Below are positions 35,801-42,367 of a stretch of 64,000 nt of DNA, in pieces. The notes under the pieces were generated by a model. That model did no database searches. It worked only from the letters and a program-made list of their open reading frames with translations, and was not told the origin of the DNA. The DNA comes from Alphaproteobacteria bacterium. Lineage in GTDB: Bacteria; Pseudomonadota; Alphaproteobacteria; Rs-D84. The translations under genes were made by a program, and so were the position numbers. The first letter of the stretch is position 1. Every line of letters starts with the position of its first letter. Where the stretch lies: contig JAFURB010000007.1 in NCBI GenBank assembly GCA_017472065.1, positions 64,626-128,625 on the forward strand. The letters are read 5' to 3'.

Positions 35801-36574
35801 ATGAACGATGATAACTTGGATTTATTAGATTTAGATGATGGTGCATCAATGGATGCATTGCCAGATGCGGCGCCGTTTGCCGCCCCGCGTCCAAAAAAAC
35901 CGTGGTTGTTGTTGACGGTGGGATTGGTTGTCATCGTGTTGGCAACATATGTAATTATTCGTACTGTTGGGGGAACATCTTCGTCCGCGATAGAGGTTGA
36001 TCTGGACGCGCCTGCGATTGTTGTTGATGGTGCGCCGTCACCGGAAATGAACGTTATGCCACCGGCACCAAAGCCTGTTGCCCAGCCGGCGGTGGCACAG
36101 CCAACACCGGGTGTCCCGGTTCGTGTCGTCGAAGACAGAAAAGATGTCACATTTAATCCAAATGCCACCCAGCCAAAGCCACAACCAGTTGCCAAACCGG
36201 TGGCGGAACCAGTGGTGGCCCAACCAAAACCACAACCGGTCGCAACACAGCCAGTTGTAAAGCCACAGCCAAAACCAGCGGCCAAGCCGGCCACCAAGCC
36301 AGCGGTTAAAAAGACCACAACATCTGCCCCGGCGGGTTCATGGTATGTTCAGTTTGGTTCATACAGCACACGCGCATTGGCAGAAAATGCCCAGCGTCAG
36401 ATACGCAATGCACACCCAAGTCTGTTCGCAGGTCAGCAATTTGTAATTCTGGCGGCCCAGGTCAAGGGGGCAACGACATATCGTCTGCGTGTTGCGTTCA
36501 AGACGGCAAATGATGCAAATGGATTCTGTCGCAATGCGAAATCCGATGGTTTGGATTGCTATGTTGCAAAATAA
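35801..36574 (+). CDS. SPOR-domain protein with Pro-rich linker
   Basis: The start is at MNDDNLDLLDLDDG. It has one TM, PKPQPVA repeats and a C-terminal SPOR domain (GSWYVQFGSYSTRALAENAQRQI...YRLRVAFKTANDANGFC). Confidence 0.8.
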   Translation: MNDDNLDLLDLDDGASMDALPDAAPFAAPRPKKPWLLLTVGLVVIVLATYVIIRTVGGTSSSAIEVDLDAPAIVVDGAPSPEMNVMPPAPKPVAQPAVAQPTPGVPVRVVEDRKDVTFNPNATQPKPQPVAKPVAEPVVAQPKPQPVATQPVVKPQPKPAAKPATKPAVKKTTTSAPAGSWYVQFGSYSTRALAENAQRQIRNAHPSLFAGQQFVILAAQVKGATTYRLRVAFKTANDANGFCRNAKSDGLDCYVAK

Positions 36575-36589
36575 TCAAAGGGGATAGAT

Positions 36590-36781
36590 ATGAGATTAGG
36601 TTGGACCGAAATAATTTTAATTGTCATCCTGGTTATGATTTTGTTTAACAGTCATAAAATCCCGGGTATGATGCGTAATCTGGCCAATGGTGTTAATGTG
36701 TTCAAAAAAGAATTAAAAGACACCAAGAAGTCAGAACCTAAAAAGGCCACAAAAAAATCACCGGCCAAGAAAAAGAAATAA
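36590..36781 (+). CDS. tatA: twin-arginine translocase subunit TatA/E
   Basis: 63 aa. MRLGWTEIILIVILVMILFNSHKIPGMMRNLANGVNVFKKEL matches the TatA TM plus amphipathic helix pattern. Confidence 0.8.
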   Translation: MRLGWTEIILIVILVMILFNSHKIPGMMRNLANGVNVFKKELKDTKKSEPKKATKKSPAKKKK

Positions 36782-36784
36782 AAA

Positions 36785-36809
36785 ATCCCGCCATTTGGCG
36801 GGATTTTTT
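36785..36809 (+). terminator. intrinsic terminator
   Basis: atcccgccatttggcgggatttttt. Confidence 0.8.
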
Positions 36810-36882
36810 CAAAGTGCAGAGTGCAAAGTTCAAATAATGAATACATGATATTACCGCGATAAATAAAAGTTTAGTGGGGTCA

Positions 36883-37238
36883 CCCATTGTCATCGCGAGG
36901 GTGTGAAACACCCGTGGCGATCCAGTAAATAGAAACAAATAGGAATACATAAAACTGGATTGCCGCGCCTGCGCTTTGCTTGGCTCGCAATGACAACTCG
37001 TCGCCAAGGCTTTGGGTTGCAGGCAAACCCGTCGCCAAGGTTTTGGGGTGTGGGCAAGAGCCACGGTGGGGCTAGCCCCATTGTCATCGCGAGGGTGTGA
37101 AACACCCGTGGCGATCCAGTAAATAGAAACAAATAGGAATATATAAGACTGGATTGCCACGCCTGCGCTTTGCTTGGCTCGCAATGACAACCCGTCGCGC
37201 TGTCGCTGCGCCGCGACAAGAACCACGGGATGACAACA
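36883..37238. repeat. cluster of palindromic repeat elements: about 115-nt composite element present twice (36883-36997, 37077-37191; period 194 nt)
   Basis: cccattgtcatcgcgagggtgtgaaacacccgtggcgatccagtaaatagaaacaaataggaata[c/t]ataa[a/g]actggattgcc[g/a]cgcctgcgctttgcttggctcgcaatgacaac occurs twice. A further motif ccacgggatgacaac at 37224-37238 recurs at 39174-39188. Confidence 0.9.
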
Positions 37239-37274
37239 GTATTAATCTCTTAACTGCCCAAAAAAACTAAACAA

Positions 37275-37303
37275 TTGCGAAATTGGAAATAATCAGTTAT
37301 AAT
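37275..37303 (+). promoter_or_regulatory. sigma70-like promoter (TTGCGA-17-TATAAT)
   Basis: ttgcga at 37275-37280, a 17-nt spacer, then tataat at 37298-37303. Confidence 0.5.
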
Positions 37304-37308
37304 ATGCA

Positions 37309-37546
37309 TGTCATGACCGATGGTCATGATGGGGTGTGGAAACCCGTACAATACGCGTCTGTGGAACGAAAACCATGAAATGGCGCGCCAAATGGCGTGT
37401 TTTTCATGCAATGTTTCGCAGATGAAAAATATGAAAAAACTCCTGACTGGTGTCAGGAGGGCTTGCGAATATATTGAATAAGCAGCACAATTCGTATTGA
37501 TTGTTTCCAACCTCCTGACCACTCGAAATAAATTCGGTGGTTTTTT
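37309..37546 (+). ncRNA. candidate structured RNA (sRNA or terminator-containing leader), copy 2, upstream of the DGR target gene
   Basis: Hairpin tcatgacc-gat-ggtcatga lies at about 37311-37329 and a GGAAACCC box at 37338-37345. A perfect hairpin ctcctgac-tggt-gtcaggag lies at 37440-37459. A second copy cctcctgac at 37511-37519 abuts the terminator ccactcgaa..ttcggtgg + T6 (37519-37546). Confidence 0.4.
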
Positions 37547-37680
37547 ATGTAAACATCCGGGGGGAACATGTTTGGAACGAATAATCGCAGTAATGGAATA
37601 ATCGACCGATGTCGCCGTGTGCGTCATGGGTCGATTATTTTTATTACAACCAAACACAGCACAAAGGAAGGAAAACAACA

Positions 37681-39015
37681 ATGACACGAAAAATATTTTT
37701 AACATCCGTTATTGCGATGGGGATTGTGTGCGGTGCCGGTGCGGCACGTGCCGAATCGTTTCCATCCAGCGGATATATGCAAGAAAACAAGACATACGAA
37801 TCGGCGGCGACATATAAAAACACGGGTGTGTACGATGGCGAAGTGTCTGCGACGGCGGAATATACCGACACAATGTACCAGATTGCGGCGGGAACATATC
37901 TGCCCGCGGCCAGCGAAGGTGTAACCGAATCTTGTCCCGCCAACAGTTATTGCCCCGGGGCCAGCAATGTTACATATAATGCGACCGCGGCCCAGGGATT
38001 AACATCATGTCCATCATCGTATCCAAATTCATCCACGGGGGCCAGCAAGCAAACCCAATGCTATACCGCGTGTACATTGTCGGTTGCGAACATCGCGCAT
38101 GCGACGGCGGTAACCGGTAACGATTATTATGGCACCGGCACAGATACATGTGCGGCAACCGCATGTGAAAACGGATATCATGTATTAAATGAAATTGGTG
38201 TTATGGATACGACACCATTGATATCGGTTGATTACACCGAATCGGGTGATGGATATGCATATATTAGTGCCAGTGGCAATGCCAGCAACAGTAATTTATC
38301 GGATGCGGGCCTGACCGAAAATAACACATGGGCGTCGCATTTTGACTATGGCACGGTTTATGGCCATGCCAGTTGCCAGCCAACAGATAGCACAGGTTTG
38401 ATGGAGGCATTTAATGGTATGCAGTCTGTTATGAATGGTGATGTAACAGCCGAAGAATACGAATCGCAAATGACGGACATCATTGGTGCGGCCAAGGCCG
38501 CGTATATGGCGGATTTAGCGACGGGCATGATGGATGGGTCAAAAACCGAATACGATATGTACGAGGCGATGTTTATCATCCTGGGCCAGGATTATGACGC
38601 AGATTATGACACAAGCAGCACGGGCCAGTATTGCTGGTGCCAGATGACGGGCTATAAACCAACCGATGGTGAGCAAAGTTCAGTCGCGGCCGCCCCGTGG
38701 GTGTCCGGCAGCGACTTCGGCTCGGCGGACTATTGCGCGTCCTACTGTGCGGGCGACTGTGCGAACTACCTGCGGAACGATCGCGATGTCTCTCGCGCAT
38801 TCCGCGCTGCGGTGTTCGGGTCGCGTGGCGCCTTGGCGGCTGGCACATGCGAGGCTAATGAAATTAGCATCACATGGACAGACGCCGCGCCAGAGGACGT
38901 TGCCGCGAATAACGCCGGCATGTGTACATACGGCGGTGATATCCGCACACCGGTCAAGGCAGCAACCATCCCAGGTAAGACGTTCAAGGGATGGAAGTTC
39001 GTCAAGGTGAATTAA
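37681..39015 (+). CDS. DGR target (variable) protein: secreted Cys-rich protein carrying the VR
   Basis: The start is at MTRKIFLTSVIAMGIVCGAGAARA (a signal peptide) with an aggaagga SD. It is 444 aa and the VR occupies codons 335-383. The C-terminal tail ...IPGKTFKGWKF resembles a Listeria-Bacteroides repeat (Flg_new) ending. Confidence 0.85.
   Translation: MTRKIFLTSVIAMGIVCGAGAARAESFPSSGYMQENKTYESAATYKNTGVYDGEVSATAEYTDTMYQIAAGTYLPAASEGVTESCPANSYCPGASNVTYNATAAQGLTSCPSSYPNSSTGASKQTQCYTACTLSVANIAHATAVTGNDYYGTGTDTCAATACENGYHVLNEIGVMDTTPLISVDYTESGDGYAYISASGNASNSNLSDAGLTENNTWASHFDYGTVYGHASCQPTDSTGLMEAFNGMQSVMNGDVTAEEYESQMTDIIGAAKAAYMADLATGMMDGSKTEYDMYEAMFIILGQDYDADYDTSSTGQYCWCQMTGYKPTDGEQSSVAAAPWVSGSDFGSADYCASYCAGDCANYLRNDRDVSRAFRAAVFGSRGALAAGTCEANEISITWTDAAPEDVAANNAGMCTYGGDIRTPVKAATIPGKTFKGWKFVKVN
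38683..38829 (+). repeat. DGR variable repeat (VR)
   Basis: It aligns without gaps to 40052-40198 (offset 1369). It encodes VAAAPWVSGSDFGSADYCASYCAGDCANYLRNDRDVSRAFRAAVFGSRG. The identical flanks are 22 nt at the 5' end and 30 nt at the GC-rich 3' end (IMH-like). Confidence 0.9.
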
Positions 39016-39024
39016 TATCACCGT

Positions 39025-39047
39025 CCCCGCCCCCCCCGGGGGCGGGG
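39025..39047 (+). terminator. 10-bp all-GC hairpin just after the target gene stop
   Basis: ccccgccccc-ccc-gggggcgggg, with no T-run. Confidence 0.4.
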
Positions 39048-39049
39048 GC

Positions 39050-39323
39050 CAGCCCATTGTCATTCCGTGGCCTGACCCCGGAATCCAGGTGTATGCAAAT
39101 AAAAAGGCAAACATGACCTGGGTCCCGGTGTCAAGCACCGGGATGACAAAAAAGATAGGTCGCGGTGGGAAAACCACGGGATGACAACCCGCCATTGTCA
39201 TCGCGAGGGTGTGAAACACCCGTGGCGATCCAGTAAATAGAAACAAATAGGAATACATAAAACTGGATTGCCACCATACTACGCTAAAGCTTCGTGTGGC
39301 AGGCGCTGCGCCTCGCAATGACA
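39050..39323. repeat. cluster of palindromic repeat elements downstream of the DGR target gene
   Basis: A variant palindrome is present (cattgtcattccgtggcctgaccccggaatccagg ... cctgggtcccggtgtcaagcaccgggatgaca). It is followed by ccacgggatgacaac and a third copy of the 36883-type element (39192-39323). Confidence 0.85.
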
Positions 39324-39360
39324 AAAGGAAAGAGATAGTAAATAAAACAAAAGGTTCGTT

Positions 39361-39951
39361 TTGGGTAAACGGTATGTGTTTTTAATGACTGTGATTCCTT
39401 TTTCCACGAATTGTTTCGCGGATACGGCATTAGATATCTTGATGCCGGGCGCAGTCGTACAAAATGCATGTGTGTTCCAAAATACCGGCGTGTATGCAGA
39501 TTCATTTACAATGGTGCCTGTGTACGAAGATACGGTGTTTACATGTGAACGCGGATACTATTTGCCAAAAGAATCTGAAACATGTGCGTTGTGTCTGGGT
39601 GATGCATGGTGCCCCGGTGGGGAATATGTTTATTCGGTCGATATGGACAGTGGAATAAATGTTTGCCCGCCCGGAACATACGCACCAATTGGCATGTGGG
39701 AATCGGCACAGTGTGGACGAAGATTCTTTGTCGGGGATGCGTTTTTATACCTGCGCGTGGGAAAAACAACGGCACCCGCACTGCATTTCGATTTCGATGG
39801 TGATGGCACCGCAGATATGTTCGCCAATATGACAACGGCGGACGTGCCAATGAACATGGATACCGAACGTAAATTGAAAATACGTATCGGTGATGTGGTT
39901 TATTCGGTATATGACGATACCGTCACAATACCAAAAACATCAGGGGAATAA
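39361..39951 (+). CDS. secreted Cys-rich protein, N-terminal paralogue of the DGR target (no VR)
   Basis: 196 aa with a TTG start and a signal peptide. NTGVYADSFTMVPVYEDTVFTCERGYYLPKESETCALCLGDAWCPGG aligns to target NTGVYDGEVSATAEYTDTMYQIAAGTYLPAASEGVTESCPANSYCPGA. Confidence 0.65.
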   Translation: MGKRYVFLMTVIPFSTNCFADTALDILMPGAVVQNACVFQNTGVYADSFTMVPVYEDTVFTCERGYYLPKESETCALCLGDAWCPGGEYVYSVDMDSGINVCPPGTYAPIGMWESAQCGRRFFVGDAFLYLRVGKTTAPALHFDFDGDGTADMFANMTTADVPMNMDTERKLKIRIGDVVYSVYDDTVTIPKTSGE

Positions 39952-40051
39952 TCATGTTATTGTGTATATACCCGTTGATGTTAAATCAGGTTCCCGACAT
40001 GAAAATCGGGAATAGGTTGCATTGCCGTTTTTGCGGTTGGTTCGTCGTGTG

Positions 40052-40198
40052 GTCGCGGCCGCCCCGTGGGTGTTCAACAACGACAACGGATCGGCGGACA
40101 ATTGCGCGTCCAACTGTGCGAACAACTGTGCGAACAACCTGCAGAACGATAACGATGACAATCGCGCTTTCCGCGCTGCGGTGTTCGGGTCGCGTGGC
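40052..40198 (+). repeat. DGR template repeat (TR), non-coding
   Basis: It has 31 adenines, all within 40076-40161. In the VR reading frame it holds 10 AAC and 2 AAT codons. It lies in the gap between gene 39361-39951 and the accessory ORF. Confidence 0.9.
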
Positions 40199-40448
40199 TC
40201 CTGGGGACAAAAGTTTTGCTAACCTGTGGGACAAAGTGTACAAACACTTTTCAGATGTGAAAAAATCATCTGGTTTCGAATTGTGCCGTTTTTGTATCCA
40301 AGGCGGGGCGGTGTAACCTGTTTGGACGTGATGAAAAAAAGTCATGTCCCTACGAATACATTACGCAGGGAACATCTGGGTTGGTAACCAATTGTGGCGA
40401 AGACCCGGGATGTTCAATCGTTAAATATTAAAAACAAGAGATTGTACA

Positions 40449-40775
40449 ATGACAATTGATGAAATCAGTCATCTGGATGTCGATGGGGTCCGATGCTTTG
40501 CAGATATGGCACGCGATAAATTACCATTGCCGGGAACAAAAAAAAGACTGGAAGAAATCTTGAATAAAAAAATAGTCGTGCTGGATTTCCGTATCACAAA
40601 ATCTAATAAACGCGAAAATTCAGATTGCCTGCAAATTCAATTCTTGTGCGATGGGGATGTTCATGTCTTGTTCACAGGCAGCGGCGTTTTAATCGACCAA
40701 ATCCAGGCAATCAAAGATAAATTGCCATTGAAAACAGTCGTCGTGAAAATCGATAAATATTATTCCTTCTCGTGA
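40449..40775 (+). CDS. DGR-associated small accessory protein, not recognisably Avd-like
   Basis: 108-aa ORF located 10 nt upstream of the RT gene on the same strand. The sequence looks beta-rich (KKIVVLDFRITKS...CLQIQFLCDGDVHVLFTGSGVLIDQI) rather than the helical basic Avd pattern. Confidence 0.6.
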   Translation: MTIDEISHLDVDGVRCFADMARDKLPLPGTKKRLEEILNKKIVVLDFRITKSNKRENSDCLQIQFLCDGDVHVLFTGSGVLIDQIQAIKDKLPLKTVVVKIDKYYSFS

Positions 40776-40785
40776 TAAAAAAAAT

Positions 40786-41814
40786 ATGAAACGGTACAAA
40801 AATCTTTGGGATGATTTTATTTCTATGGACAATTTGGAATTGGCCGCAAAAAAAGCTGTGCAATCCAAAAAGTCTAAACGCGCAACTAAATTCTTTTTGA
40901 AACATAAAAAAAAGTTACTGAATAAACTGCAACGGCAATTGCAAAACGGAACATTTTATACATCGCAATACAAAATTAGAAAAATTTTCGAACCAAAAGA
41001 AAGACTGATTTATATATTGCCACTGTATCCAGACCATGTGTTGCACCATGCGTTGATAAATATTTTGGGACCAATTTGGCAAAGCGCATTCGTGCGCGAT
41101 TCGTATGCGTGTATCCCAGGCAAAGGACTGCACAAGGCATCCGGCACAATCATGCGATTTGTTCGACGAAATAAATATGTGTTGCAATGCGATATCAAAA
41201 AATTCTATCCGTCAATTAATCACAATGTTATGTTCAATATTATAAAAAGAAAAATCGGTGATAAAAAATTACTGGCGGTGTTGTGGGATATTATAAAATC
41301 GTGCGGGGATGAAAAAAATCTGCCAATCGGAAACCTGACCAGTCAATGGATGGGTAATGTTTATCTGAACGAATTAGACCATTTCGTCAAAGAAAATCTG
41401 CGATGTCGGGATTATATTCGGTACTGTGATGATTTCTGTCTGTTCGCAGATGATAAAAAAATTCTGTGGGAATATAAACAAAAAATCGATGAATTCGTGC
41501 GCGATAAATTAAAATTGGAATTTTCTAAGTCTTCAATTTATCCAGTGGCGCGTGGGGTGAACTTTATCGGGTATCGACATTTCAAAAAATTTATAATGCT
41601 GCGAAAATATGGCGCAAAAAAGTTGCGGCGACGCATCGAAAATATCGCAAATCATGATGATGTGTCTGATTTGGCGGTGGGGCAATTGGCCGCGTATCAC
41701 GGGTGGATTAAATGGTGTTGCAGTTATAATTTCTTGAAAAATCTGTGTCGGCGCGCGTGGCGAATTTCAAATGATTCAGGCCTGTTTATTTGGAACGGGA
41801 TGGCGTTTAGTTAA
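40786..41814 (+). CDS. DGR-type reverse transcriptase
   Basis: 342 aa. Motifs present are NLWDDF...NLELAAKKA, EPKERLIYILPLYPDHVLHHAL, DSYACIPGKGLHKA, CDIKKFYPSINH, LPIGNLTSQWMGNVYLNELDHF (the DGR hallmark [IL]GxxxSQ), YIRYCDDFCLF (YxDD) and GVNFIGY. Confidence 0.92.
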   Translation: MKRYKNLWDDFISMDNLELAAKKAVQSKKSKRATKFFLKHKKKLLNKLQRQLQNGTFYTSQYKIRKIFEPKERLIYILPLYPDHVLHHALINILGPIWQSAFVRDSYACIPGKGLHKASGTIMRFVRRNKYVLQCDIKKFYPSINHNVMFNIIKRKIGDKKLLAVLWDIIKSCGDEKNLPIGNLTSQWMGNVYLNELDHFVKENLRCRDYIRYCDDFCLFADDKKILWEYKQKIDEFVRDKLKLEFSKSSIYPVARGVNFIGYRHFKKFIMLRKYGAKKLRRRIENIANHDDVSDLAVGQLAAYHGWIKWCCSYNFLKNLCRRAWRISNDSGLFIWNGMAFS

Positions 41815-41815
41815 A

Positions 41816-41910
41816 TATCAACTGGGTGGCCGCGTTTTTTGCGTACGCACATTTTAACTGCGTTCCACTTTCTTTGAAGTGTTGTACGCGGCGCGGCCCC
41901 CCAGTTGATA
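41816..41910. repeat. 19-nt inverted repeat pair separated by 57 nt, immediately 3' of the RT gene
   Basis: tatcaactgggtggccgcg (41816-41834) faces cgcggccccccagttgata (41892-41910), with one mismatch. Confidence 0.6.
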
Positions 41911-41933
41911 AAAAAATCCCCCACACGGGGGAT
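41909..41933 (-). terminator. intrinsic terminator of dksA (may also stop RT transcription)
   Basis: The minus strand reads aatcccccgtgtgggggattttttt. Confidence 0.75.
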
Positions 41934-41935
41934 TG

Positions 41936-42367
41936 TTATTTCTTGCGGGCTTCGTATTCTTCTTGTTCTTCGACCGTCATGGTCGCCAATGGGCGTGCCA
42001 TCATCCGTTTAAGACCAATTTCATCGCCGGATACAACACTGAAACCATATGTGCCGTTTTCAATGCGGGCCAGGGCGGCATTAACCTTTTGTAATAATTT
42101 ATTGCTGCGTTCAGACATACGCAGGTCCATGGTGATATCTTGGTTATACGATGCGTTGTCCGATTCGTCACCGGCACCGGCGGCCTCGGTCTTGTCGGCC
42201 ATGCGGACCGCGTTTAATACTTCGTCGCGTTCGCTAAGCAGTTCTTCGCGTTGGTTGTTCAAGATGTTATAGAAGTATGCCAACTGTTCCGCGCACATAT
42301 ATGGTTCAGACAGTTTTGGCTTGTACTTTGATGACAGTTCAATTGTCTTGTAATTAGCTGTTGCCAT
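41936..42367 (-). CDS. dksA: RNA polymerase-binding factor DksA (no Cys4 zinc finger)
   Basis: 143 aa with a coiled coil carrying the DxxDxA tip (DESDNA). The C-terminal ENGTYGFSVVSGDEIGLKRMMARPLATMTVEEQE is homologous to the DksA zinc-finger region but contains no Cys. Confidence 0.8.
   Translation of the reverse strand: MATANYKTIELSSKYKPKLSEPYMCAEQLAYFYNILNNQREELLSERDEVLNAVRMADKTEAAGAGDESDNASYNQDITMDLRMSERSNKLLQKVNAALARIENGTYGFSVVSGDEIGLKRMMARPLATMTVEEQEEYEARKK

Follow-up and report, generated by a model that had tools for sequence, protein, structure and literature searches.

A chromosomal diversity-generating retroelement from a gut alphaproteobacterium with its variable region in an apparently new, predicted six-cysteine scaffold

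The window analysed here is a 64,000-nt stretch of contig JAFURB010000007.1 (assembly GCA_017472065.1, forward-strand positions 64,626-128,625), and all coordinates given below are those of the window. It carries a chromosomal diversity-generating retroelement (DGR). The target gene occupies 37681..39015 on the forward strand, as do the other genes and features of the cassette unless stated otherwise, and runs from an ATG at 37681 through 444 codons to a TAA stop at 39013-39015, with the ribosome-binding site AAGGAAGGA upstream. It is followed by a 196-aa open reading frame (ORF), the template repeat (TR), a 250-nt spacer, a 108-aa ORF, and a 342-aa reverse transcriptase (RT). From the N to the C terminus, the target protein consists of a signal peptide, a Cys-rich N-terminal region, the domain bearing the variable region (VR), and a tail resembling the Flg_new family. 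The system works as a classical DGR, with three departures: the VR does not lie at the 3' end of the target gene, no Avd is recognizable, and the VR domain, as modelled, does not adopt a C-type lectin (CLec) fold. We are fairly confident of this account as a whole, that is, of a DGR combined with a new VR scaffold whose structure is predicted.

The bacterium that carries the element is an uncultured alphaproteobacterium of the gut with a reduced genome, and its relatives include Candidatus Enterousia. Members of this group have genomes below 1 Mb and presumably rely on partners, and the host is described as a strict gut anaerobe without respiration (PMC12306168). A search with the target protein returned 358 homologs at E <= 1e-3, all of them hypothetical proteins of uncultured Alphaproteobacteria. 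The homologs in the genome collection come almost entirely from Candidatus Enterousia and related metagenome-assembled genomes from animal guts, where up to about nine paralogs of the target family are found in one genome.

The RT (40786..41814) matches RVT_1 and, at 6e-96, phrog_1423, and it has the motifs IGNLTSQ and YCDD. Over its full length, in an alignment of 322 residues, it shares 32% identity with Brt of phage BPP-1 (E 1e-53), and IGNLTSQ is aligned to IGSLTSQ of Brt. Both the homology to Brt and the [I/L]GxxxSQ motif that mark the RTs of the DGR clade are thus present.

The VR (38683..38829) comprises codons 335-383 of the target and aligns without gaps over 147 nt to the TR (40052..40198). 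The two differ at 20 positions, 18 of which are adenines in the TR, as expected of a DGR. The other two are thymines in the TR, 38705 (T>C, which turns a TR Phe into Ser342 of the VR, F342S) and 38799 (T>A, silent), so the statement in the initial annotation that every diversified position is an adenine-containing codon holds for all but these two sites. The 31 adenines of the TR are confined to 19 codons (AAC ten times, AAT twice, GAC three times, GAT twice, GGA and CAG once each). The remaining 30 of the 49 codons lack adenine and encode V, A, P, W, F, S, C, L, R and G, in agreement with the earlier observation on the invariant residues, and the motif SADxCASxCAxxCANxLxNDxDxxRAFRAAVFGSRG is reproduced codon by codon. 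With the codons used for the same amino acids in neighbouring genes as the baseline, 30 adenine-free scaffold codons would arise by chance with a probability of about 10^-3.6. The earlier idea that codon usage protects the Cys scaffold is therefore borne out. The avoidance of adenine is statistically real, yet it is a general property of DGRs. The 3' end of the VR (38794..38829) is adenine-free and GC-rich, encodes RAFRAAVFGSRG, and is the candidate initiation of mutagenic homing (IMH) site. It equals the TR except for the silent change at 38799, and the identity of VR and TR stops at 38829/40198. No further TR-like copies or additional VRs were found in the 64-kb window.

Comparison with relatives indicated that diversification takes place at the adenine-templated codons. 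In P0002, the nearest strain variant (93% identity), 14 of the 19 adenine-containing codons are changed, as opposed to 15 of the 425 other codons. Across 112 aligned members of the family, the hypervariable columns are 343-347, 350-351, 354, 355, 358-359, 362-363 and 365-371, and these peaks of entropy coincide with the TR adenine codons of the window. At ten other related loci, drawn from species-representative genomes and assemblies, the mismatches between VR and TR are adenine-only or nearly so. These ten stand for about seven distinct DGRs, because L057 nearly duplicates L058 and L059 nearly duplicates L060. One genome has a further, unlinked paralog that matches that genome's TR as well, with 15 of 17 mismatches at adenines. 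Two loci of the set, L059 (7001-7947) and L060 (4359-5305), have the accessory ORF and a TR/VR pair (15 of 18 differences at adenines), and the next gene there is an adenylate kinase with no RT; their RT is either lost or located elsewhere. A 40-nt stretch at L010, 8480-8519, downstream of a target/ORF2 pair with no RT within 6 kb, matches the 3' part of a TR at 97.5% and may be the remnant of a degraded DGR.

The VR-bearing domain (codons 166-392, 38176..38856) is predicted to be an alpha/beta domain. AlphaFold2 modelled the domain by itself with a predicted local distance difference test score (pLDDT) of 93.3 and a predicted template modelling score (pTM) of 0.89. All five domain-only models (residues 166-392) reached a pLDDT of 91-93, and the full-length model built from the family alignment exceeded 90 over residues 180-440. 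In the models, five short strands are followed by four helices inserted at codons 240-300, the strand with C318-x-C320, a strand at 340-345 (PWVSGS), and two helices, 349-365 and 369-379. The VR would thus be a strand and a helical hairpin, with 28 of its 49 residues helical. The second of the two helices (RAFRAAVFG) is conserved and is encoded by the adenine-free codons at the 3' end of the VR. The domain contains six conserved cysteines, C232, C318, C320, C352, C356 and C360. Among the 112 members, C318, C352 and C356 are present in 112, C360 in 111, and C320 in 110.

The structure prediction, structure comparison and profile search that the initial annotation called for were carried out, and its suspicion of a non-canonical VR fold was supported, as the domain was placed in no CLec or FGE-type family. 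Searches with the target and its C-terminal pieces against Pfam, NCBIfam, PHROGs and PDB sequences gave a weak Flg_new match in the tail only. None of the 112 members matched FGE-sulfatase, Lectin_C, DUF1566 or another lectin-type family of Pfam at E <= 0.1, the family profiles had no significant match in the PDB, and alignment to Mtd with hhalign gave a probability of 0.13%. Foldseek found no match for the confident models in the PDB (best E 1.6 for the full-length model and 0.87 for the domain model, TM <= ~0.2) or, with the full-length model, among the viral proteins of BFVD (best E 0.7). CLec membership was thus recovered neither by sequence profile nor by structural superposition. Nor does the domain resemble the Ig-like DGR targets (Ig1/Ig2), since only Ig_Shg was found, in 2 of the 112 members at E 0.08, and the modelled VR is mostly helical. 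On present evidence, as far as the models allow, the VR domain is not a C-type lectin fold, and its scaffold is apparently new.

A profile search of 1.8 billion representatives (proteins P0232-P0377) showed that the C-terminal two-thirds of the VR domain form a separate module of about 110 residues when the helical insertion is left out. The module has the signature C...CxC...W...Cx3Cx3C...FR with six invariant cysteines. Clustering at 50% identity gives 809 clusters with the module, and 113 of the 146 top representatives contain it. It stands alone at the C terminus of some proteins and is repeated in tandem in others, which are giants of up to 6,218 residues. Few members could be traced to a source, and these come from uncultured Alphaproteobacteria. 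The window VR domain belongs to this unnamed family; most of its members have no DGR nearby. The 444-aa subfamily of Enterousia adds the four-helix insertion and the Flg_new tail. The short proteins P0310, P0378 and P0334 with the module at the C terminus have no adjoining DGR. P0378 (166 aa, a single module; loci L053/L054/L055) adjoins the type IV secretion genes VirB8 and CagX (VirB9-like), likewise without a DGR nearby.

The first helix of the predicted hairpin (codons 349-365, 38725..38775), helical in both models and by its periodicity, carries the Cys triad. Its sequence, A-D*-Y*-C-A-S*-Y*-C-A-G*-D*-C-A-N*-Y*-L-R* with variable residues marked by asterisks, alternates two conserved with two variable residues. 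An invariant face is made up of C352, C356 and C360 with A353, A357, A361 and L364, and a variable face of residues 350, 351, 354, 355, 358, 359, 362, 363 and 365. The helical moment of the family-wide entropy was equalled by only 34 of 10,000 shuffles, and the variable side lies opposite the Cys/Ala/Leu side. The loops at 343-347 before the helix and at 365-371 between the helices are variable too. As judged from secondary structure and periodicity, the variable residues, whose clustering on a single face had been proposed as a check, lie on one face of the helix and in the adjoining loops. Instead of the loop display that had been suggested, the model shows display on a helix face plus the flanking loops.

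We suggest that the cysteines of this helix are disulfide-bonded to those of the sheet, because six invariant cysteines lie in a secreted domain and because C320 and C360 tend to be lost together. Among 504 aligned module copies, both are absent in 12, C320 alone in 1, and C360 alone in 5, so C360-C320 would be the best-supported pair.

The window system is taken to act by the established DGR mechanism. The RT copies an RNA containing the TR, taken as TR 40052-40198 plus the spacer 40199-40448, and probably acts together with the 108-aa accessory protein. Nucleotides are misincorporated at template adenines, and the cDNA then replaces 38683-38829. The product would be a secreted protein in which the module forms a small beta-sheet (C232 and the C318-x-C320 strand), the strand PWVx, and the helical hairpin. 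In the repeat C-A-x-x-C-A-x-x-C-A-x-x-L of the first helix, Cys, Ala and Leu would be buried and written in adenine-free codons, with the AAY/GAY positions exposed. The helix face and the loops 343-347 and 365-371 might together make a single variable surface for ligand binding, with about 19 positions, and the disulfides would hold the helix in place so that its outer face could accept whatever side chain occurs there.

The position of the VR at codons 335-383 of the 444-codon gene agrees exactly with the initial annotation. A misread stop codon had been named there as a way to overturn an internal VR; the stop is correct, and the VR is truly internal. A length of both 61 and 62 residues had been given for the tail, of which 61 (codons 384-444, 38830..39012) is right, and the tail ends in IPGKTFKGWKFVKVN as claimed. 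By homology transfer, we assign the tail to a separate Listeria-Bacteroides repeat (Flg_new / InlB B-repeat) domain, modelled as a beta-beta-alpha-beta-beta unit. The window copy itself scores 13.5 bits (E 0.08) against Flg_new (PF09479), below the gathering score of 27 bits. Flg_new was matched by 28 of the 112 aligned homologs (best E 5e-7), several of them above the gathering score at 28-28.5 bits. In homologs the tail carries the motif ...C-x-Y-G/D-x...P-x-K-x-G-x-T-F-x-G-W. The domain is not diversified, and its position relative to the VR module varies by lineage.

A terminal VR is common and not obligatory, as the VR lies at the 3' end of the target in 87% of cases and about 13% are not terminal (PMC11661182). 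In the window, 61 codons follow it. Because the sister DGRs carry the module at the extreme C terminus, the internal VR is a lineage-specific domain order and not a property of the module. The sister targets end 2-3 residues past the module, with lengths of 244 aa in L057/L058 and of 306 or 497 aa in L059/L060, and L058 has a Flg_new-like segment on the N-terminal side of its module. The initial annotation had taken the internal placement as a sign of a new fold, and this argument falls, since the same module is C-terminal in the sister DGRs. At six loci with an internal VR from different species (L001, which is the window's own contig, L002, L003, L005, L009 and L028), each VR matches its own TR, and in three of them 100% of the differences fall at adenines. 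Retrohoming must therefore still function when the sequence downstream of the VR is coding. This tests the idea that C-terminal VRs reflect cis-elements that need to be non-coding (PMC8144416).

With regard to such cis-elements, the adenine-free, GC-rich 3' segment expected of an IMH is present, and the candidate for the associated inverted repeat is distant. A perfect 10-bp GC hairpin, CCCCGCCCCC-CCC-GGGGGCGGGG (39025..39047, no strand assigned), lies 9 nt past the stop and 196 nt past the VR end, and it has no T-run. Other DGR-adjacent targets have similar post-stop GC hairpins without a T-run. These begin about 18-27 nt past the end of a C-terminal VR and about 190 nt past that of an internal one. 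Paralogs without a DGR also have post-stop hairpins, mostly A/T-flanked and terminator-like. The hairpin at 39025-39047 may be the cruciform element of the DGR, moved away by the tail and acting at a distance, or else an unusual kind of terminator. No conserved hairpin was found within about 100 nt past the internal VRs. GCTAAT-GAA-ATTAGC (38855-38869) and the CATGTGA/TCACATG stem were tried as cis-elements and rejected, as they are absent in the targeted L009, L028 and L030 and present in non-adjacent paralogs.

The 108-aa accessory ORF (40449..40775) lies upstream of the RT in 9 of 11 related DGR loci; the other two are L059 and L060, which show no RT. Its 111 clusters all come from uncultured Alphaproteobacteria, and the identity is 50-83% across the related loci and 50-62% for the sister DGRs with a C-terminal VR. 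The protein had no match in Pfam, NCBIfam, PHROG or PDB. We considered Avd, which is found in 74% of DGRs (PMC5758913), as its identity. BLASTP gave no alignment to BPP-1 Avd and hhalign a probability of 0.06%, so at the level of sequence and profile the ORF is not recognized as Avd. It appeared as a candidate for a new DGR accessory protein. Like HRDC, MSL and CH1, which are non-Avd accessory genes of DGRs (PMC5758913), it is a small conserved ORF in an Avd-less DGR cassette. It differs from them in having no HRDC or MutS Pfam match and a pI of 7.7, compared with 4.7 for CH1 and 9.5 for Avd. Between the TR and this ORF lies the conserved 250-nt spacer (40199..40448). RNAalifold on seven loci gave a fold of 50 pairs, 15 of them with compensatory changes, in several covarying hairpins, and together with its sequence conservation this indicates that the spacer probably corresponds to a structured 3' portion of the DGR RNA.

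Four other explanations have to be weighed against a DGR with a new, disulfide-stapled VR scaffold. One is that the module is a highly divergent CLec of the FGE/Mtd type, with the helices modelled wrongly or Foldseek blind to it, and that the window merely has an ordinary target with an extra domain. Several points weigh in this direction. All of the structure is prediction, with Cys burial and the clustering of variable residues judged from secondary structure and periodicity alone, and the absence of a known fold means no match in the PDB or BFVD. CLec variants are hard to spot by sequence: CLec2 and CLec3 were initially missed and needed fold recognition (Wu et al. 2017, PMC5758913), and uncharacterised VR domains have been argued to be probably new CLec variants (Roux et al. 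2021, PMC8144416). W340 and F374-R375 are spaced in a way that bears a superficial likeness to the W...(G)xR at the end of the Mtd VR, and with the ending FRAAVFG this spacing loosely recalls the ends of CLec VRs. Foldseek against the PDB also missed the small Flg_new tail, so its sensitivity for small domains is limited. Against a CLec stand the five models at a pLDDT of 91-93 with a pTM of 0.89, whose 28 helical VR residues agree with the i/i+4 periodicity of the alignment, and the absence of any CLec chain among the Foldseek matches, of any lectin family in the 112 members, and of likeness to Mtd by hhalign. We consider a hidden CLec unlikely. A further possibility accepts the new fold and has the Cys triad ligate a metal or cluster with C232, C318 and C320, or stay reduced in an anaerobic periplasm. 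The i, i+4 and i+8 spacing of the cysteines along one side of the helix could let them line a metal site, and the host is a strict gut anaerobe without respiration (PMC12306168), in which periplasmic disulfide formation is only presumed. C352 is missing alone in 5 modules, and some of the 12 cases of co-loss are close relatives, not 12 independent events, which also weakens the pairing. The even number of six invariant cysteines in a protein with a signal peptide nevertheless suits disulfides, the paired loss of C320 and C360 is the signature of disulfide partners and not of a shared multi-ligand site, and no conserved His, Asp or Glu lies beside the cysteines. Metal binding or free thiols therefore seem improbable, to much the same degree as a CLec.

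The remaining two explanations concern activity. The window DGR might be a fossil, for example if the insertion of the Flg_new tail had parted the VR from its downstream hairpin. The identical 444-aa protein, VR included, is found on 6 contigs, and fast ongoing switching in the window strain is thus presumed rather than observed; two non-adenine differences have accumulated between VR and TR; and the first 100 nt past the VR hold no conserved hairpin, the GC hairpin being 196 nt away. We nevertheless doubt this explanation, as the cassette's RT, accessory ORF and TR, together with the structured spacer, are intact and conserved, the six loci with an internal VR that matches its own TR require retrohoming after acquisition of the tail, and the 93%-identical strain differs at 14 of 19 adenine-containing codons. 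Hypervariability might also result from recombination or gene conversion among paralogs instead of a retroelement, given that one genome may hold up to about nine of them. Adenine specificity effectively refutes this, leaving it a very slim chance: 90-100% of the differences from the TR are at adenines, the donor is a non-coding repeat adjoining the RT, and the paralogs differ at many non-adenine sites. The reading that we prefer remains an operating DGR that diversifies an apparently new scaffold.

The window system is similar to the DGR of phage BPP-1 (Mtd/Avd/TR/Brt) in its homologous RT, the adenine-specific TR/VR pair, the adenine-free GC-rich 3' end of the VR, and the AAY codons at diversified positions. 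It differs in that the target domain has no likeness to the Mtd CLec in sequence or predicted structure, 61 codons follow the VR, the accessory ORF between TR and RT is unrelated to Avd, a 250-nt structured spacer follows the TR, and the system is chromosomal instead of phage-borne. With the CLec variable proteins of solved structure (Mtd, TvpA, TaqVP and the archaeal AvpA), the target shares a compact domain with about 12-20 exposed variable positions, an adenine-free scaffold, and a secreted or surface multi-domain architecture, whereas the modelled window VR is a strand and two-helix hairpin with a Cx3Cx3C stripe in a six-Cys module that has no CLec match.

A lectin fold has been reported for all DGR targets whose structure is characterised. 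The CLec fold is regarded as the conserved, near-universal scaffold of DGR variable proteins (PMC6328139; PMC8144416). Annotated VR regions are systematically CLec, those of unknown fold are presumed to be variants of it, and earlier claims of Ig-like targets have been re-interpreted (PMC8144416; PMC6328139). Full-text literature searches found no description of the module family or of a helix-based VR. We give about even chances to the broader proposal that there is a second DGR hypervariation scaffold, namely the six-Cys module of about 110 residues with a disulfide-stapled helical hairpin, served by a DGR clade with a non-Avd 108-aa accessory protein, and that this clade tolerates about 190 nt of coding sequence, enough for a whole additional domain, between VR/IMH and the GC hairpin. 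A confidently predicted, widely conserved non-CLec scaffold would untie retroelement hypervariation from one fold. It would also offer a small disulfide-pinned module for helix display, by analogy with engineered binders that act through a helix face. Such a module could be exploited at a time when directed evolution in E. coli is being built on installed DGRs (bioRxiv 10.64898/2026.07.21.739853). That Enterousia, with a genome below 1 Mb, retains up to about nine paralogs and a DGR parallels the enrichment of DGRs in episymbionts of the candidate phyla radiation (CPR) and DPANN, and points to a role of the target-family proteins as attachment or recognition factors.

The rest of the target and its surroundings can be described briefly. 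The target starts with the signal-peptide-like N terminus MTRKIFLTSVIAMGIVCGAGAARA, followed by the Cys-rich region (codons 25-165, 37753..38175) with repeats of the CPxxSYCPG type, modelled at low confidence with a pLDDT of 35-80. Relatives of this region match the Pfam family DUF7631 and, weakly, Ephrin_rec_like. The 196-aa ORF2 (39361..39951) is the partner of the target gene, whose product it resembles over the N-terminal ~110 residues (family profile E 3e-14), and according to tblastn the target-ORF2 pair is kept in most loci whether a DGR is present or absent. A repeat of about 122 nt flanks the target, with two copies upstream (36883-37004 and 37077-37198) and one downstream (39191-39312). 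In an Rfam scan of 36500-42000, a palindromic element at 39058-39152 gave a sub-threshold match to Wolbachia small RNA 46 on both strands and nothing else was matched. The repeats and the palindromic element are similar to repetitive extragenic palindromes (REP) or miniature inverted-repeat transposable elements (MITE).

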